Of a stretch of 64,000 bases of DNA, positions 11,271 through 50,497 are shown piece after piece. Source of the stretch: Candidatus Bathyarchaeota archaeon (lineage in GTDB: Archaea; Thermoproteota; Bathyarchaeia; Bathyarchaeales; Bathycorpusculaceae); NCBI GenBank assembly GCA_963832745.1, contig CAWHVC010000001.1:320001-384000 (forward strand), in the 5' to 3' direction. Numbering within the stretch: position 1 is the first letter of the stretch; each line of letters starts with the position of its first letter. Both the position numbers and the translations under genes were made by a program. The notes beneath the pieces were generated by a model, which was not told the origin of the DNA, did not search any database, and saw only the letters and a list, made by a program, of their open reading frames with translations.

Positions 11271-11312
11271 ATTAAGCGGTTTTTCCCAAATTGACCCCTA
11301 GTTAAACCCAAA
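11271..11312 (-). promoter_or_regulatory. Promoter with three 11-bp-phased boxes (TTTGGG tttaa CTAGGG gtcaa TTTGGG) upstream of TTAATA
   Basis: Read on the minus strand; the same motif occurs at 12203-12244 and 12953-12993. Confidence 0.6.
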
Positions 11313-11329: not shown

Positions 11330-11779
11330 TTAGTATTTTACGCTCAAATATAGCAGTACCGATAAAGCTGCAAACTCGAACAGGTCAGGCAAGACTATGA
11401 ATGGACCTAAACCCATCGGAAAGAAATGGAAGATGCTTGCTGTAAACGGACTTGAAAACAAATCTTTTAATAGAAATGCAAACCCGAAGATAAGCAGAGC
11501 AAAGGAGAATTCTGATTTTGTTTTTTTGTAGACGCTAATGAACGTAATTAGTAGGACAATTAATAATGCAACGTTTAAAGTTGAGACGATCGCATGTGCA
11601 ATGTAGAAGAATTCAAAATCGTAATAGAAGAAGGCTTGTCCTCCAGGGGGCTGTCTTTGTTCAACCGGCGTATAGAGTATGGATGCTGCCCAAAAAGCTG
11701 CAAACAAGCCAACCAATATAAGAATTGGAAGAAGTAATCCAATCTTGAATTTTATGTCACTTTTCATCTTGGTTTCCAC
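11330..11779 (-). CDS. 4-TM membrane protein, partner of the adjacent wHTH regulator
   Basis: Four hydrophobic segments; YKKTKSEFSFALLIF motif; co-oriented 19 nt downstream of the regulator. Confidence 0.75.
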   Translation of the reverse strand: METKMKSDIKFKIGLLLPILILVGLFAAFWAASILYTPVEQRQPPGGQAFFYYDFEFFYIAHAIVSTLNVALLIVLLITFISVYKKTKSEFSFALLIFGFAFLLKDLFSSPFTASIFHFFPMGLGPFIVLPDLFEFAALSVLLYLSVKY

Positions 11780-11798: not shown

Positions 11799-12101
11799 CT
11801 ACTTTTTCCCTATTTTGCTGCTAATCTCCTCAAACAGGTTGTAATTGTCCTCCATCACTTGAGAAAGAAAATATGTTGCACCATATCGATCGCCGATTGA
11901 CGTGATCAAACGGTTTTTCTCCAGAACTTCCAAGTGGTGACGCATTGTTTTGTAATCCATGTTTAGCAACGTCGCAAGTTGGTTAGCATTTTGGGGTTTA
12001 TTTTTAAGGGCTTCAAAAATTTTTGCCCTAGTCGGCCCGCCGCGAGTGCCTGCGATTAACCATCCAAGCAGATACTTTAGTGAACGGGCGTTGCTAGACA
12101 T
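11799..12101 (-). CDS. ArsR-like winged helix-turn-helix regulator (archaeal GTRGG type)
   Basis: LGWLIAGTRGGPTRAKI...PQNANQLA...DYKTMRHHLEVL...YGATYFLS. Confidence 0.88.
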   Translation of the reverse strand: MSSNARSLKYLLGWLIAGTRGGPTRAKIFEALKNKPQNANQLATLLNMDYKTMRHHLEVLEKNRLITSIGDRYGATYFLSQVMEDNYNLFEEISSKIGKK

Positions 12102-12202
12102 TTTTTAACATCCTGTATAGGAAATCTTTGTTTCAACTTATTCTGATTAAGGTAATAAATGTCACCTTTTTTGTTTGTGTTATCTAGGCTTTTATGGCAA
12201 AA

Positions 12203-12244
12203 TTAGGAGTCAATTTGGGCTAAATATTGAAAAATGCCTTAATA
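12203..12244 (+). promoter_or_regulatory. Promoter with phased boxes (TTAGGA gtcaa TTTGGG ctaaa TATTGA) upstream of TTAATA
   Basis: Direct reading; shares the gtcaatttggg core with the other sites. Confidence 0.6.
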
Positions 12245-12285
12245 ATTTTCTGCGAACCCAGCTTTGTTTATGGAGGTGAACAAGC

Positions 12286-12834
12286 ATAGACACAAAAACA
12301 AAAGCGTTGACTTTAATTTCAGTGTTAGTTTTAGCCGCAGCCGCTACAACCCTGTTAGTTACAAATCAACTCAACGTTAACGCCGACACCAACAGCACAA
12401 GCACAGTAACCTCAGACGATTCAGCAACAAATACAAGCACAACCACAACAGTAGCTGACGACAATGCCAGTCAATACTTCTGCTTTGGTCATGGACGAAT
12501 GGGATTGATGACCATACAAGTAGAACATGGATTCGGAGGTCATGGACAGGTTCAAGTAAGCGATGAATTCAAAGAAAACGTCACCAGCATTGCGAGTGCT
12601 GATTCAGACGTACAAGACCTACTAAATAACGGATACAACGTGACCGCAGTAACTCCGATACTACAAAGCACTGTTGACGGAAACGGATACGTAACCACTA
12701 GAGCTTCAACTGCAATCCTCACCTTAACCAAAGACGACACAAACAGTTATGGCAGAGCACAGGTACTTGTTAACATTGACCAAGCCACAGTAACAAAAAT
12801 CTACACTGAAACAAGAACCCTAATAGAGAAGTAA
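12286..12834 (+). CDS. Secreted Thr/Ser-rich hypothetical protein, probable ATA start
   Basis: SD GGAGGTGA (12272-12279), then ATA GAC ACA AAA... in frame with the ORF-track ORF; signal peptide; Gly/His-rich linker. Confidence 0.75.
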   Translation: MDTKTKALTLISVLVLAAAATTLLVTNQLNVNADTNSTSTVTSDDSATNTSTTTTVADDNASQYFCFGHGRMGLMTIQVEHGFGGHGQVQVSDEFKENVTSIASADSDVQDLLNNGYNVTAVTPILQSTVDGNGYVTTRASTAILTLTKDDTNSYGRAQVLVNIDQATVTKIYTETRTLIEK

Positions 12835-12952
12835 CTTTAACCCAACCAATTTTTCTCTTCTTTCTCCATTATTCCCTTTAAAGTTCTTCTCTTTTTTTCA
12901 AAAAAATATTTCACGTAAACATTATGCGTTCTTTGCCGAGTTAAGGTTTGGA

Positions 12953-12993
12953 TTTGGGTTCAATTTGGGTATTATTTTGAAATTAATTTAATA
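12953..12993 (+). promoter_or_regulatory. Promoter with phased boxes (TTTGGG ttcaa TTTGGG tatta TTTTGA) upstream of TTTAATA
   Basis: Direct reading; third copy of the motif. Confidence 0.6.
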
Positions 12994-13019
12994 GCAAACC
13001 TGACCTTCAAGGGTCTTCA

Positions 13020-13150
13020 TGGCAGCCGAGAAGGTAAAAAACCCGTGTAAAGTTGCCGCAGACTCTCACCGTTTGAGTTTTGTGGCGTCGAACAAGCATC
13101 CTCCTCAGCACCTTCTCGGTTGCCAAACTTCAACCTAAAATATATGGTGA
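13020..13150 (+). ncRNA. Structured 5' leader RNA (candidate cis-regulatory element)
   Basis: 16-bp stem 13020-13035/13110-13125; inner hairpin 13055-13086 whose loop TCACCGT is complementary to SD ATGGTGA 13144-13150. Confidence 0.6.
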
Positions 13151-13156
13151 CCATTT

Positions 13157-14602
13157 TTGGGCGTACTAAACAGAGCTGTAAGAAATATTTCAAGAAGAAA
13201 AATTCGTGCTTCACTTGTAATAATTGCGTTGGCTTTTTCTATGGCCATTTTAATCTCGATACCTGCTGGAGTTATGGCTAATCAGGATGTTGCTCAATCT
13301 TTAAGCGACAACCTGAGTAGAACAATAACAGAGACAGGAGCATCCATTAATCAAACATTAACCCAGATAGATTGTACTTCGGAGCTTTCAGGATACGGTT
13401 TTAGACCTGCTGAATCAACAGGCAACTATAATCAAAGTGATAGACCCATGCCTTCTGGAGGATTTGGAGGCTCTGGTTTTGATCCAAGCCAGTTCGGTGG
13501 AGGTGGAATACCGGGACAATTTGGCGGCGGCTCCTTTGGCGGTGGTGAAGCTAATCCGATGAATCAGAGCTTGTATGACGATGTTTCAAGCATTAGTGGT
13601 GTTGCTGCTGTAGCACCCATTTTAGATGCGACTCAAGGTCAAAATGTAACTCAGGAGTTCATGGGCAGAAGCTTCACAAGAATCGTAGCGGATTACGTAA
13701 TTGAAGGCATACCACTGACTGAGGACCTCGTTAACTACAACATTTTACCAACTAATATTACAGAGGGCAGAAACCTGCAAGCTGGCGATAGCGGCGTAGT
13801 TGTTTTAAGTGAAAACAACACAGCATACTTCAACGCTGGCGTAGGCGATACAATATCAATTCTAGGTGAATCCTTCACTGTAGTAGGTATTCATGGGACA
13901 TCAGGCGTTTCAGACATCACTACGCTATACATGAACCTAACGGATGCTCAAACAATAACCAACAACACCGGTTACATAACAACATTAAGAGTGTTCGCCA
14001 CAGACAGTTCAGTAGTGTCACAAGTAGCAAGTGACATCAGCGCATTACACAGCGAATTAAACGTTCAAACAGCTCAAAGCACTCTGGAACGAATGCAAAG
14101 CCTGCAATCAAGCCAAACTACCGCAATAGAAAACGCTGAAGCATCACTTGCCCAAAGCCAAAGCACAGCCATTCAAGAAATCATCGTGGTAGTTCTCGCA
14201 ACTAGCTTAATCGTCCTATTCGTAATGCTCTACACTGTTCGTGAACGTACCAAAGAAATTGGCACACTCAAAGCAATCGGTTTCAGCAACCGCACTGTAA
14301 TGAGGCAATTTGTTTTAGAAGGCATCCTGTTGAGCGTTATCGCTGGAGCCATAGGCATTGCTATTGGAACATTCCTTGCGCCAACGCTATCTTCGCTACT
14401 ATTGCCAGCAATAAGCTCAGGAGCAACAGGAGCAGCTAGCCAATTCAGTCAAGCCACAATCCAAACCGCCGCGGTTTCGGTTACTCCGGAGTTGATGTTG
14501 CTTGTTTTCGGCTTCTCAATACTGCTTGGAACACTTGGCAGTTTGTATCCAGCTTGGAGAGCAGCAAAAATTAGACCAGCAGAGGCGATGAGATATGAGT
14601 GA
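13157..14602 (+). CDS. ABC transporter permease, MacB/FtsX family
   Basis: RNISRRKIRASL N-terminus, large extracytoplasmic domain, VRERTKEIGTLKAIGFS, YPAWRAAKIRPAEAMR. Confidence 0.92.
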   Translation: MGVLNRAVRNISRRKIRASLVIIALAFSMAILISIPAGVMANQDVAQSLSDNLSRTITETGASINQTLTQIDCTSELSGYGFRPAESTGNYNQSDRPMPSGGFGGSGFDPSQFGGGGIPGQFGGGSFGGGEANPMNQSLYDDVSSISGVAAVAPILDATQGQNVTQEFMGRSFTRIVADYVIEGIPLTEDLVNYNILPTNITEGRNLQAGDSGVVVLSENNTAYFNAGVGDTISILGESFTVVGIHGTSGVSDITTLYMNLTDAQTITNNTGYITTLRVFATDSSVVSQVASDISALHSELNVQTAQSTLERMQSLQSSQTTAIENAEASLAQSQSTAIQEIIVVVLATSLIVLFVMLYTVRERTKEIGTLKAIGFSNRTVMRQFVLEGILLSVIAGAIGIAIGTFLAPTLSSLLLPAISSGATGAASQFSQATIQTAAVSVTPELMLLVFGFSILLGTLGSLYPAWRAAKIRPAEAMRYE

Positions 14603-15359
14603 GATAGCATTAAAAATTGAAAAACTAACAAAAAGTTACATGCTTGGCAAACGTGAAGTCCAAGCGTTAACTAACCTTAATTTGGAAGTTAAAAAAGGTG
14701 AATTCGTATCCATCATGGGACCTTCCGGTTCAGGAAAAACCACACTGCTAAACGTTATTGGATGCATAGATAAAGCAACCAAAGGAAATGTAGTTTTAGA
14801 CGGCGTCGAAATTGACAAAATGCCTGAGAATGAACTCTACAAAATTCGCAGAGACAAAATGGGATTCATCTTCCAATCTTTCAACCTATTGCCGTACCTC
14901 AACGCCAGAGAAAACGTAGAATTACCAATGGAGCTAAAAACCTCATCTAAAGAGGCCAGAAGCAAAAGAGCAAGCGAACTGTTGGCGTTAGTTGGACTTT
15001 CCGGAAGAGAAAGCCATCGCCCACAAAGGTTAAGCCAAGGAGAACAACAACGCGTCGCCATCGCACGTGCACTCGCCAACGACCCAGCAATCATCTTAGC
15101 AGACGAACCTACAGGCAACTTAGATATTCAAAACAAGCAAGACATCATTAAACTGCTTGCAAACCTAAACATCAAACAGAAAACCACAATCATCATGGTT
15201 ACCCATGACAGTCAAGTTGCTTCTCACACTGAAAGAGTAGTCTTTCTTAAAGACGGCAAAATCTCAAAAGAAAGAGAAGGCCTACTGCTAAACAGGAAAC
15301 GTGAGGGTCAATTAAAACCCTATAAAGTAGAACAAGGAAAAGTGAAAGAAAATGTCTGA
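14595..15359 (+). CDS. ABC transporter ATP-binding protein, LolD/MacB type
   Basis: GPSGSGKT, GFIFQSFNL, LSQGEQQRVAIARAL, ILADEPTGNLD. Confidence 0.95.
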   Translation: MSEIALKIEKLTKSYMLGKREVQALTNLNLEVKKGEFVSIMGPSGSGKTTLLNVIGCIDKATKGNVVLDGVEIDKMPENELYKIRRDKMGFIFQSFNLLPYLNARENVELPMELKTSSKEARSKRASELLALVGLSGRESHRPQRLSQGEQQRVAIARALANDPAIILADEPTGNLDIQNKQDIIKLLANLNIKQKTTIIMVTHDSQVASHTERVVFLKDGKISKEREGLLLNRKREGQLKPYKVEQGKVKENV

Positions 15360-16740
15360 AACCCCTGAAAACCAAAACGCAGAAACAACGCAACCAATCG
15401 ATGAAGACCCAGCGGAACAAGCGACACATGCACCTGTTCAAGAAAACGAGTCGCCACAAAAAGCTTCAACGCCATCCTCTCAAGAATATTCACCTTTTTG
15501 GCCAACTGAGGAGCAGTCTCCTCCGCCACCGCCCCCGTCTTCGCCGTCTTCTTTATCACAACCTCATCAACATAAACATAGAAACACCAAAATAGTCATG
15601 GTAGCGCTTCTTGCTATTTGTTTGCTTGCTGGAAGTTTTATCGGGTACGCCTTAACCTATTCGACGCTTGACGGCAAAATTAATGACCTACAGTCTCAAC
15701 TGCAGTATTATCAGTCAAACGGGCAAACAGGCAATGTTGACACAGTTTCCAGCCTGAACTATACAGGTTCACTAGCCAGCTTGTATCAGAACGTTAAAGC
15801 TTCCGTTGTGGTTGTTCAGGACCTTGTGCCGCAATATAACATGTTTGGGTTCCTTGCCGGTTACGGTATCCAGCAGGGATCTGGTTTTGTAACCAGCGTC
15901 AACGGGCAACAAGTAATCGTGACAAACAATCACGTAATCGACACTGCAACAAACATTACTGTAACCTTTGCGGATGGCACCAGTTACACTGCAGAAGTTT
16001 TAGGCTCTGACGCAAATGCGGACCTTGCCGTTTTAAGCGTAGATTCATTACCCAGCGGCGTGCAGTCCCTAACAATGGTCAGTTCATCAACTTTAAACGT
16101 AGGAGACACCGTCGTCGCGGTAGGTTCACCGTACGGGCTTTCAGGAACCTTAACAACAGGCATCATCAGTGCGCTTGGAAGAACAATCGTTGAAGGAAGC
16201 AGCACAACAGGCATCGCCATCCCAGATACTATTCAAACAAGCACAGAAATCAACCCTGGAAACTCTGGAGGCCCACTCATCAACCTGCAAGGGCAAGTCG
16301 TAGGCATAACCACCGCGGCAGTCAGCGACTCACAGGGCTTAGGCTTCGCAATCCCATCAGACACAATTATACGCGAAATCGTCTCGCTCGTCAACACCGG
16401 TTCATACACTCAGCATCCATCATTAAACGCTCAAGGAACTGACATGAACCTACAAATCGCGCAAGCAATGGGAACCGATGTCACCTATGGATGGCTGGTA
16501 GAATCAACGCAACAAAACAGTGCACTTAAAGGCGGCACAACCCAAGCAACCATTCTCGGTGACCACGTAATCATCGGCGGAGACATCATAATCGGCGCAG
16601 GCAACAAAGTAATAACCAACTCAGATGATCTACTTACGTACTTGGAACAGAATACGTTGCCAGGGCAAAACGTAGATTTCACGGTGATTCGAGATGGACA
16701 GCAGCAGACTGTAACGGTGGAAATCGGCAGCCTAAGCTAA
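15352..16740 (+). CDS. htrA: Membrane-anchored HtrA/DegP-like serine protease with PDZ domain
   Basis: Catalytic triad motifs TNNHV, DLAVL, INPGNSGGPL; Pro-rich cytoplasmic N-tail, TM, C-terminal GGDII PDZ. Confidence 0.92.
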   Translation: MSETPENQNAETTQPIDEDPAEQATHAPVQENESPQKASTPSSQEYSPFWPTEEQSPPPPPPSSPSSLSQPHQHKHRNTKIVMVALLAICLLAGSFIGYALTYSTLDGKINDLQSQLQYYQSNGQTGNVDTVSSLNYTGSLASLYQNVKASVVVVQDLVPQYNMFGFLAGYGIQQGSGFVTSVNGQQVIVTNNHVIDTATNITVTFADGTSYTAEVLGSDANADLAVLSVDSLPSGVQSLTMVSSSTLNVGDTVVAVGSPYGLSGTLTTGIISALGRTIVEGSSTTGIAIPDTIQTSTEINPGNSGGPLINLQGQVVGITTAAVSDSQGLGFAIPSDTIIREIVSLVNTGSYTQHPSLNAQGTDMNLQIAQAMGTDVTYGWLVESTQQNSALKGGTTQATILGDHVIIGGDIIIGAGNKVITNSDDLLTYLEQNTLPGQNVDFTVIRDGQQQTVTVEIGSLS

Positions 16741-50360: not shown

Positions 50361-50497
50361 TGGTGGGGCAGAGAGGATTTGAACCTCTGACCAACGGGTA
50401 TCTACAGCTCCAGAACTTCGTCATTCCCCAAAGGGTCAGTACCAAATTCTGTGATACTTCTGGAGCCCGCCGTAATACCGGGCTATACTACTACCCC
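50361..50497 (-). tRNA. tRNA-Trp(CCA) with a 60-nt intron at 37/38 (50400-50459), CCA encoded
   Basis: Acceptor GGGGTAG/CTGCCCC; anticodon arm GCGGG-CTCCAG|A-CCCGT; T-arm AGAGG-TTCAAAT-CCTCT. Confidence 0.95.
50400..50459 (-). ncRNA. Intron-encoded box C/D-like guide RNA (degenerate)
   Basis: D' CTGA, hairpin CCC-TTT-GGG, C' ATGACGA; guide AGTTCTGGAGCT complementary to the anticodon region. Confidence 0.65.

Follow-up and report, generated by a model that had tools for sequence, protein, structure and literature searches.

What does a structured segment of about a hundred nucleotides do between an operator-controlled promoter and an operon for an ABC transporter and an HtrA-type protease? 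The question arises from a stretch of 64,000 nucleotides (hereafter the window) in the genome of a Bathy-6-type Bathyarchaeon. Bathyarchaeia are an abundant uncultured lineage found in soils, peat, sediments, and arthropod guts. To our knowledge, very few cis-regulatory or stress-linked RNAs have been described in archaea, and we know of none in Bathyarchaeia. A narrow literature search found no paper joining Bathyarchaeia and HtrA, and a similarly narrow search on Bathyarchaeota non-coding RNA returned nothing relevant beyond general covariation papers. A first-pass annotation of this DNA had proposed a structured 5' leader whose hairpin loop pairs with the Shine-Dalgarno sequence (SD) of the first gene, i.e., a translational switch, or alternatively a separate small RNA (sRNA). 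The element is, in our assessment, very probably a genuine conserved leader RNA, and the RNA family to which it belongs is real and previously uncatalogued.

Structure of the leader RNA

The leader RNA domain is non-coding, measures about 105 nt, and lies at about 13019-13126 on the + strand of the window, where the structure described in the annotation can be read from the sequence itself (13020-13125). Fold and covariation define a closing helix between a purine-rich 5' arm (TGGCAGCCGAGAAGGT, 13020-13035, +) and a 3' arm (ACCTTCTCGGTTGCCA, 13110-13125, +), and the annotated 16-bp stem with its single G-U pair is confirmed at these positions. Inside this helix, an A-rich 5' interior strand (AAAAAACCCGTGTAAAGT, 13036-13053, +) is unpaired or weakly paired in the fold and leads into an inner hairpin at about 13054-13087 (+) with the loop TCACCGT at 13066-13072 (+). 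The hairpin had been annotated as 11 bp at 13055-13086; its existence stands, but its pairing in the predicted fold consists of 9 + 4 pairs with a small internal loop. The 3' interior strand (13088-13109, +) comprises CGAACAA and then a C/U-rich tract (CATCCTCCTCA, 13097-13107, +), all of it single-stranded in the predicted fold. This includes CATCCTCCT (13097-13105), a second tract resembling an anti-SD that the annotation had correctly described as unpaired.

Folding of 13010-13165 on the + strand gave -52.8 kcal/mol (z = -3.84; 1 of 200 shuffles as good), compared with z = -1.92 and 10 of 200 shuffles as good for the minus strand, and a covariance model of the element scored 29-131 bits on the + strand vs. 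16-27 bits on the reverse strand. G-U or U-G pairs are frequent at four positions of the closing helix in an alignment of 33 sequences, and it is because of these many G-U pairs that the element was assigned to the + strand. A gene on the minus strand was rejected given the weaker fold, the lower model scores, and the fact that the G-U pairs would become A-C there. The genome (3.02 Mb) contains one full-length match to the element and three other matches of only 14-21 nt (E >= 2.2). The element is therefore single-copy, which rules out the multi-copy MITE that the annotation had raised as an objection, or any other dispersed repeat. A sequence look-up returned this DNA only from overlapping portions of the same genome.

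As the annotation had anticipated, Rfam 15 has no match in the window at gathering thresholds. At E <= 10, a search of 12800-13300 returned only a snoRNA match on the other strand (15.2 bits vs. a cut-off of 45), and at E <= 1 a search of five homologous loci returned only a miRNA match (24.4 bits vs. a cut-off of 135); these matches are chance-level. There is no tRNA or tmRNA at the element's place, and an H/ACA or C/D guide RNA was rejected for want of an ACA box after the helix, of a K-turn signature (judged by eye), and of any Rfam match.

Conservation across Bathyarchaeia

The covariance model matches in 63 of 120 genomes of the genus (Bathy-6/Bathycorpusculum-like Bathyarchaeia) and sporadically in the rest of the order (10 of 151). 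Covariation of the closing helix is strong. Counted in alignments that were fitted to the covariance model and so favor the modelled helix, 94% of its cells are paired with compensatory changes at 15 of 21 pairs; the corresponding values for 33 sequences are 96.9% and 10 of 16 pairs, compared with 41%-59% paired cells in slid controls, and an alignment of 15 sequences gives a picture that agrees with this. In the latter, 91.7% of the cells of the inner hairpin are paired and 4 of 5 modelled pairs show compensatory changes. None of 500 shuffles scores as well as the whole structure, a comparison in which the kinship of the sequences overstates significance. The comparison of homologues thus places both the closing helix and the inner hairpin far beyond chance, and the covariation and G-U pairs seen there bear out the annotation's suggestion of selection at the RNA level.

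Throughout the family, the closing helix has 16-21 pairs, predicted folding energies of the whole domain range from -28 to -46 kcal/mol, and the 5' interior strand is A-rich. The interiors of type A (the subtype of the window), type B, and other genera cannot be aligned except for a CAAAYAA segment and a C-rich pyrimidine tract directly before the 3' arm, which all subtypes carry. Type A has CAUCCUCC as this tract, type B has CCCCUUC, and other genera have CUCCUCCCC or UCUCCCC. Most type A members also keep AAAAACCCGTAT in the 5' interior strand. The interior of type B is different, without the type A inner hairpin, and is almost invariant, with no covarying inner helices or junction in the alignment. 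A triple helix of the pyrimidine tract and the purine-rich arm was considered and rejected, the mirror symmetry being absent by eye from the window and from type B.

Promoter and operon context

Operator-like direct repeats at 12950-12984 (+), i.e., ATTTGGGT boxes about 11 bp apart followed by TTTTGAAATT, lie immediately upstream of the TATA box and are conserved 5' of the RNA in homologues. The same motif with the same spacing to TTAATA recurs in the window at 12201-12245 (+) and at about 11285-11312 (-), and it is found at one further promoter of the genome (G000 C1:227283-227323). At another promoter with this operator, the leader is short, has a strong SD, and does not contain such an RNA; the RNA is specific to the FtsX/ABC/HtrA operon. 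The presumed reader of the operator is a divergently encoded winged-helix regulator of 100 aa (ArsR/HTH_20-like; 11799-12101, -; Pfam HTH_20 4.8e-09), co-transcribed with a membrane protein of 149 aa (11330-11779, -; an ORF with no Pfam match). This gene pair is present in most of 15 homologous loci. Among 80 loci retrieved with the regulator protein, 49 have the RNA in divergent orientation to its gene, and inspection by eye added at least 15 others.

The TATA box itself (ATTTAATA, 12986-12993, +) is conserved in homologues. Archaeal TATA boxes usually lie at about -26/-27, and the first paired base of the helix comes 29-33 nt after the initial T of TTTAATA in 62 of 64 distinct sequences (mode 30; 33 in the window). 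The helix thus begins at the position expected for the transcription start, which we infer at 13017-13020 (+) from this distance and the usual place of the TATA box.

Downstream, the operon begins with an FtsX/MacB-type ABC permease at 13157-14602 (+; Pfam FtsX 3.3e-21, MacB_PCD 4.5e-09), whose TTG start codon at 13157 is in frame with the FtsX/MacB domains. It continues with an ABC ATPase that overlaps both neighboring genes (14595-15359, +; ABC_tran 6.5e-34) and an HtrA-type serine protease with a trypsin-like domain and a PDZ domain (15352-16740, +; Trypsin_2 2e-30, PDZ_2 8.1e-07). A regular-expression search placed an FtsX gene downstream of the element in 52 of 64 sequences and an HtrA gene in 4, and the remaining 8 were assigned by eye to FtsX or HtrA genes with unusual starts. 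The RNA directly precedes HtrA in 6 of the first 15 loci, the order RNA-FtsX-ABC-HtrA holds in 5 of 8 longer type B stretches, and in genomes with two copies (L023, L026) both precede FtsX paralogues. Only one element, the doubtful orphan L134, stands without an FtsX or HtrA gene.

Between the end of the helix and the start codon lie 17-46 nt (median 27; 56 sequences with an assigned start), a distance that also accommodates the SD and therefore leaves no room for a second archaeal promoter. Since the helix stands 29-33 nt past the TATA box and 17-46 nt before an FtsX or HtrA start, the element is the 5' leader of the operon. The annotation was right on this point, for which covariation, G-U pairs, the single genomic copy, and the promoter distance all speak. 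In the window, the spacer (13126-13156, +) contains a plausible SD, GGTGA, at 13146-13150 (+). Fold statistics across the family describe the spacer as unstructured: from the helix end to +12, the mean minimum free energy is -2.1 kcal/mol and the mean z is +0.15, with 1 of 62 sequences at z < -2, and positions -13 to -5 have a mean predicted unpaired probability of 0.61. The SD and the start codon thus lie outside the leader domain and are accessible in the predicted folds.

Candidate functions of the leader

Our best guess, held with somewhat less than even confidence, is that the leader acts in cis as a 5'-terminal clamp that governs the fate of the transcript. Transcription from the operator-controlled promoter would start 0-3 nt before the helix of 16-21 bp, which would join the first bases of the transcript to bases about 90 nt downstream. 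Within the interior closed off in this way, an A-rich strand and a C-rich pyrimidine strand would be exposed. Such a clamp would act on transcript fate and not on ribosome access. Its base-paired 5' end could protect the long stress-operon mRNA from 5'-end-dependent decay, in which the nucleases would be archaeal 5'-3' exonucleases. About half of the members, the window not among them, carry a U4-U7 tract just past the helix, where transcription may partly terminate; a stable RNA of about 100 nt would then arise beside the read-through mRNA. The exposed C-rich strand could be a docking site for a putative protein or RNA partner that tunes the outcome.

The U tract divides the family: at least 4 U directly follow the helix in 34 of 64 distinct members and are absent in the other 30. 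Where the helix of the window ends, there are no 3 or more consecutive T, its T5 run being at the start codon instead, and no U tract follows the helix in the nearest relatives either. According to part of a published account (PMC8716108), U tracts serve as the terminators of archaea; they usually comprise 4-7 U, and a hairpin is not strictly required. Besides the missing tract in the window and its nearest relatives, two points qualify the clamp. A pure stabilizer would not need a conserved interior, and the near-invariant interior of type B resembles reversed operator boxes, so that its conservation could act on DNA.

The same structure could instead release a trans-acting stress sRNA, a domain of about 100 nt freed from the leader by U-tract termination or by processing, whose exposed C-rich motifs would pair with G-rich ribosome-binding regions in the manner of the enterobacterial sigma-E-dependent sRNAs; we regard this proposal as unlikely, though with a real chance of being right. 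An RNA with both ends locked in a helix would be stable, the 34 of 64 members with 4 or more U after the helix would offer a point of release, and the RNA would share its regulation with a putative envelope-stress regulon. Conservation extends to the single-stranded C-rich strand, whose motifs in type B are not paired with the 5' interior strand: pairing of that strand with the CCCAA boxes was tried and rejected, at a mean of -1.89 kcal/mol vs. -1.84 kcal/mol for shuffles and with 2 of 50 loci at p <= 0.05. However, 30 of 64 members have no U tract, and the host has no RNase III gene that could release the RNA: its genome, 99% complete, has no match to PF14622 or PF00636, whereas positive controls gave matches in 8 of 14 genomes. 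This rules out a leader stem processed by this enzyme.

Targets in trans did not emerge either. In the window's own genome, the 14-nt complement has no close match beyond the gene itself, and the near matches that were inspected lie at no obvious start codon. When up to 2 mismatches were allowed, five type B genomes contained 18, 12, 21, 15, and 16 sites, compared with 14, 19, 19, 17, and 11 for a reversed control, i.e., there was no excess of complementary sites, and the best of the type B sites falls by eye in apparent G+C-rich coding sequence. Within the window, matches of only 5-6 bp were found to the translation initiation regions (TIRs) of genes of the operon and regulon. The annotation's separate sRNA thus survives only as a species derived from the leader. 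An independent gene is at odds with the fixed FtsX or HtrA gene downstream (56 of 64 by regular expression, 8 by eye), the single and doubtful free-standing element, and the lack of room for a second promoter.

Part of the conservation could also reside in DNA. The type B interior would then be a second, inverted operator array bound by the winged-helix regulator, forming a loop or roadblock about 100 bp past the first array, with the RNA helix merely folding the leader away; this mixed reading seems rather improbable to us. Its evidence comes from 50 type B loci, in which 113 operator-like hexamers in reverse orientation (CCATAA, CCCAAT, and CCCAAA, with two 11 nt apart) fall at +30 to +59, against a background of about 3 estimated from the locus, and the forward boxes lie between -80 and -41. 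A nearly invariant type B interior devoid of RNA covariation would fit such an array. However, all 50 loci are homologous and the enrichment is therefore a single evolutionary event, type A (including the window) and the variants of other genera have no boxes yet keep the helix and pyrimidine tract, and the strict upkeep of a 16-21-bp helix would be left unexplained.

A ligand-sensing riboswitch, with the interior as aptamer and the closing helix plus U tract as expression platform, is very unlikely. The 5' leader of a transporter operon is a typical position for one, a long terminal helix is followed by U in about half of the members, and the type B interior is strongly conserved. Yet no core is conserved in all members as an aptamer would be: the interior differs radically between subtypes and genera while closing helix and gene context stay unchanged, and type B has no covarying internal helices or junction. 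Our in silico search found no alternative pairing that competes with the closing helix, and there is no Rfam match even at permissive thresholds.

We see little chance for the switch favored by the annotation, in which the SD of the permease gene is bound in a pseudoknot by the TCACCGT loop or the CCUCC tract until temperature or a ligand frees it. The complementarity is present, in that ATGGTGA at 13144-13150 is the complement of the loop, and it recurs in the relatives L008, L010, and L011; the SD of the window also has a predicted unpaired probability of 0.36, below the family mean, and HtrA genes in bacteria are heat- or stress-regulated. But this complementarity does not exceed chance, as the interior-to-TIR duplex of the window has z = -1.1 with 13% of shuffles as good, and duplexes across the family barely beat shuffles (mean z = -0.9; 8 of 62 at p <= 0.05). 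The loop is common only to five close relatives (L008-L012, the window's own locus included), of which L012 carries one uncompensated loop change. Type A members further away have loops of unrelated sequence, and the hairpin as such is missing from type B; loop-SD complementarity is not maintained across homologues. A thermometer or pseudoknot switch is unlikely because the pairing is confined to the closest relatives and the SD region is unstructured; across 62 sequences, the SD or start codon was not found in a conserved metastable helix. A domain of -28 to -46 kcal/mol closed by 16-21 pairs would moreover be far too stable for physiological melting.

Finally, a leaderless small ORF (in the window, ATG at 13019 and 39 codons) is next to impossible as an explanation: 9 of 12 type A members have an ATG where the transcript is predicted to begin and 6 share the frame at both ends, but a 1-nt indel breaks the frame in the closest relatives L008 and L011, L013 has a stop after 11 codons, an ATG is missing from 3 type A members and from type B, whose lengths vary by 1-2 nt, and the ATG would be buried in the closing helix, so we rejected a leader peptide for lack of a conserved start codon and reading frame.

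Implications

Clear covariation, a promoter with a readable operator, and a fixed HtrA operon make this leader an entry point to archaeal extracytoplasmic protein quality control. It also touches the wider question of whether archaea exert post-initiation control through 5'-terminal helices and U tracts. A more far-reaching idea, which we would call a long shot, is that the leader forms the RNA arm of an archaeal envelope-stress circuit, combining cis control over the amount of FtsX/ABC/HtrA mRNA that survives or is read through with feedback on the regulon by a released 100-nt RNA. In most of the family, i.e., type B, the single-stranded interior is antisense to the operator boxes of the regulon in the same 11-nt phase, which might allow it to titrate the regulator or to pair with nucleic acid that contains the operator. 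If true, an RNA copy of the operator would be used for feedback, for which we know of no precedent.

Comparison with known systems

The sigma-E regulon of enterobacteria includes the sRNAs MicA, RybB, and MicL, and sRNAs derived from 5' UTRs are known as well. The element described here resembles them as an RNA that would be co-induced with an HtrA/DegP-type protease from a stress-regulon promoter and that exposes a single-stranded C-rich sequence as a possible seed. It differs in being always physically joined to its operon, and no targets were found by complementarity. With RNA thermometers such as ROSE and fourU it shares a structured 5' UTR before an HtrA-containing operon. Thermometers, however, hold the SD or AUG in a weak helix, whereas here the SD lies in an unstructured spacer and the conserved helix is very stable.

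Bacterial terminator or attenuator leaders likewise place a hairpin and a U tract between promoter and first gene, as do 34 of 64 members of this family. Archaeal termination, in contrast, needs the U tract and not the hairpin, according to part of the same account (PMC8716108), and the window has no such tract. Compared with bacterial attenuators and riboswitch platforms, the family showed neither an antiterminator alternative nor a conserved aptamer in silico. The clamp that we favor has its closest counterparts in the 5'-terminal stabilizer hairpins of bacteria, e.g., in the ompA 5' UTR or the aprE and ermC leaders of B. subtilis. Both feature a stable helix within a few bases of the 5' end, a free SD, and a position before a long or stress-related mRNA. 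What sets this element apart is that it is archaeal and that its helix is no simple hairpin but encloses about 70 nt that include conserved single-stranded sequence.

Structure and selection of the operon leader

The FtsX/MacB-type permease gene (TTG start at 13157, + strand) is directly preceded by a structured RNA element of ca. 105 nt, followed on the same strand by genes for an ABC ATPase and then an HtrA-type protease with overlapping gene ends, and flanked upstream by divergent genes encoding a winged-helix protein (100 aa) and a membrane protein (149 aa). This element is the leader of the operon and very probably a genuine conserved leader RNA. Every sequence feature listed in the first-pass annotation is present when the sequence from 12700 to 13500 is read. 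A closing helix of 16 pairs including one G-U (arms at 13020-13035 and 13110-13125, + strand like all features within) encloses an A-rich strand on its 5' side, an inner hairpin (about 13054-13087) whose loop TCACCGT (13066-13072) has its complement ATGGTGA at 13144-13150, and a 3' interior strand (13097-13107) with CATCCTCCTCA at its end. The fold of the + strand from 13010 to 13165 (-52.8 kcal/mol, z = -3.84) was equaled by 1 of 200 shuffles and that of the minus strand is less exceptional (z = -1.92; 10 of 200).

The proposal that preserved pairing reflects selection at the RNA level is supported by covariation. In an alignment of 33 sequences, the proportion of paired cells is 94.2% (80.7% in shuffles), compensatory changes occur in 15 of 21 pairs, and the observed covariation score was reached by 0 of 500 shuffles, though the alignments behind the pair counts had been fitted to the model and, with related sequences, shuffle counts cannot be read as probabilities. 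Pairing falls to 41-59% when the partner is slid by 1-3 columns. For the closing helix alone, two-sided changes affect ten of the 16 modelled pairs and 96.9% of cells are paired. A 15-sequence alignment agrees with these results and also supports the inner hairpin, as present in the window's subtype, with 4/5 pairs compensatory. Because G-U and U-G pairs are common at four helix positions and model bit scores are higher for the forward (29-131) than for the reverse strand (16-27), the RNA is made from the + strand.

The element is single-copy in the 3.02-Mb, 99% complete genome and therefore not a MITE, a possibility raised at the outset. The expected absence of an Rfam match held around the element even at E <= 10 and on five homologous loci at E <= 1, and ARAGORN found no tRNA at this position; across the whole window, Rfam matched three tRNAs and nothing else. 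The element represents a new family of RNAs in Bathyarchaeia. Elsewhere, a 134-nt Rfam tRNA (50364-50497, - strand; 49.7 bits) is missing from the ARAGORN results and is probably an archaeal tRNA with an intron.

A 39-codon ORF (13019-13138, + strand) begins where the transcript is predicted to start, and its frame is preserved in 6/9 ATG-bearing sequences of the window's subtype (type A). It is broken in the closest relatives, and we therefore rejected a leader peptide.

Distribution and subtypes

Of 61 related genomes, four including the window's own gave a BLAST match to the element. A covariance model from four sequences detected it in 15 of 120 genomes within the genus, and a second model built on those 15 in 63 of the 120 (37/73 among genomes at least 90% complete). 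Six of 151 genomes in a family sample carry it, including the window's own and two other genera, as do 10 of 151 in an order sample, including one genome of another family whose locus (L133) has operator, RNA, and FtsX gene. Among 80 loci retrieved via the winged-helix protein, the covariance model located the RNA in divergent orientation to the regulator gene in 49; inspection of the 31 misses revealed at least 15 recognizable copies, two reduced ones (L059 and L082), and one truncated copy (L089). The loci so retrieved belong to Bathyarchaeia; their records name 'Bathy6' MAGs as well as Candidatus Bathycorpusculum, with peat, fen, soil, sludge, and arthropod guts as sources. The two reduced leaders, from termite-gut Candidatus Bathycorpusculum, span about 60-80 nt between the same operator promoter and FtsX, with recognizable helix arms and no conserved interior. 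A copy in another genus (L134; G372:C9:864861-864954, - strand) has neither operator/TATA upstream nor FtsX downstream and may be a relic or free-standing.

All matches pooled amount to 82, i.e., 64 distinct sequences. The 12 distinct type A sequences, the window's among them, have an interior composed of a covarying hairpin, then GUCAAAYAA and CAUCCUCC. The 50 type B sequences share a nearly invariant interior, AAGGCCAUAAGCCCAAUAACUGCCCAAAUAAAAUNCCCCUUC, and no covarying inner helix was found among them. Variants from other genera (L024, L025, L115, and L133) have different, longer inner hairpins. Common to all subtypes are the closing helix, itself well conserved in sequence (CAAYCAAGAAGRG paired with CYCUUYUUGGUUG), the A-rich 5' strand, and, immediately upstream of the 3' arm, a pyrimidine tract rich in C.

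Position of the leader and its promoter

Counted from the first T of the TATA box, the first paired base lies 29-33 nt downstream in 62/64 sequences (mode 30; window 33). Given the usual position of the archaeal TATA box relative to the transcription start, the closing helix should start no more than about 3 nt from the latter. From the helix end to the start codon there are 17-46 nt (median 27) containing a GGUG-type SD, leaving no space for a second TATA-dependent promoter before an SD-bearing 5' UTR. The downstream gene, assigned by pattern, is FtsX in 52 and HtrA in four of the 64 sequences, and by eye the remaining eight are FtsX or HtrA with unusual start codons or spacing; Pfam identified HtrA at L013 and L015. 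In two-copy genomes, both copies lie upstream of FtsX paralogues (L023 and L026). The order RNA-FtsX-ABC-HtrA is found in 5/8 longer type B stretches, the other three having no HtrA directly after the ATPase.

At some loci, ACG (L021, L029, L033) or CTG (L119) aligns with the ATG/TTG/GTG start of FtsX, or ATA (L013) with that of HtrA, each downstream of an intact SD, which suggests non-canonical initiation in this lineage. In the complete genome carrying L122 (G003:C1:986500-992100, - strand), the FtsX gene behind the leader consists of two separate ORFs (169 and 289 aa), reflecting either a frameshift or an assembly error.

A motif of TCAATTTGGG, 18 nt, and TTAATA is common to four promoters of the genome, i.e., that of the element (12950-12993, + strand), those of two exported-protein genes (12201-12245, + strand; about 11285-11312, - strand), and, outside the window, one preceding genes for a 77-aa zinc-ribbon-like protein and then a small membrane protein (G000 C1:227283-227323, - strand). 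Judged by this motif, the element's promoter belongs to a putative small regulon, in which the leaders from the other promoters are short, carry strong SDs, and contain no structured RNA. The operator-motif scan also surfaced near-identical G/T-rich stretches of >100 nt (TTTGGTTGTGGGGGGGTTTGG...) on several contigs, all outside the window (G000 C1:557514, C4:143762, C5:103919).

Possible functions of the leader

We tentatively favor cis-acting control of transcript fate, a reading that we regard as possible rather than probable, because of the helix at the 5' end, the free SD, the strict linkage to one operon, the exposed C-rich strand, and the U tracts (a run of at least four U directly after the helix in 34/64 members). 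A leader-derived sRNA acting in trans would fit both the stable architecture and these U tracts, but the element is free-standing in L134 only and no excess of complementary sites was found.

The type B interior may be read at the DNA level as a second, inverted operator, or may, as RNA, copy the bottom strand of the operator. It contains two or three hexamers that are reverse complements of operator boxes (CCATAA, CCCAAT, CCCAAA), with CCCAAT and CCCAAA 11 nt apart as in the operator itself (e.g., L030:1501-1597 and L027:1501-1598, both - strand and outside the window); no pairing of these boxes with the 5' interior strand was predicted. Forward boxes cluster at -80 to -41, and 113 reverse hexamers fall at +30 to +59 in the 50 type B loci compared to about 3 expected from locus background, an enrichment that represents one evolutionary event because all 50 loci are homologous. 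However, the window's own subtype lacks reverse boxes. A riboswitch is unlikely because the interior differs between subtypes and is thus not conserved.

The first-pass annotation was right about a structured leader of the ABC-HtrA operon under selection as RNA, but its switch by loop-SD pairing is wrong or at least unsupported. This pairing is limited to the closely related L008-L012, which include the window's own sequence; even there, L012 has a loop change without compensation, and the loops of the remaining type A sequences are unrelated. Predicted duplexes between interior and translation-initiation region exceed shuffles by only a small margin (mean z -0.9; 8/62 at p <= 0.05; window z = -1.1), and the region from helix end to +12 is essentially unstructured in predicted folds (mean MFE -2.1 kcal/mol, mean z +0.15; z < -2 in 1/62). 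The SD is mostly unpaired in whole-leader ensemble folds (mean unpaired probability 0.61; window 0.36), and the folding energy of the conserved domain is -28 to -46 kcal/mol. Given the unconserved loop, weak duplexes, unstructured SD region, and stable domain, we reject a thermometer or SD-sequestering pseudoknot as the conserved function. Since no RNase III gene is present in the genome, processing of the leader by RNase III is ruled out.

Under cis-acting control of transcript fate, the closing helix would act as a clamp protecting the 5' end of the transcript, and a factor could dock on the exposed conserved C-rich strand. Where a U tract is present, partial termination would produce read-through mRNA together with a short, stable RNA. 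As far as described in the cited work, archaeal terminators are U tracts of usually four to seven uridines without a strict hairpin requirement, and termination efficacy increases with the number of U4 tracts (PMC8716108).
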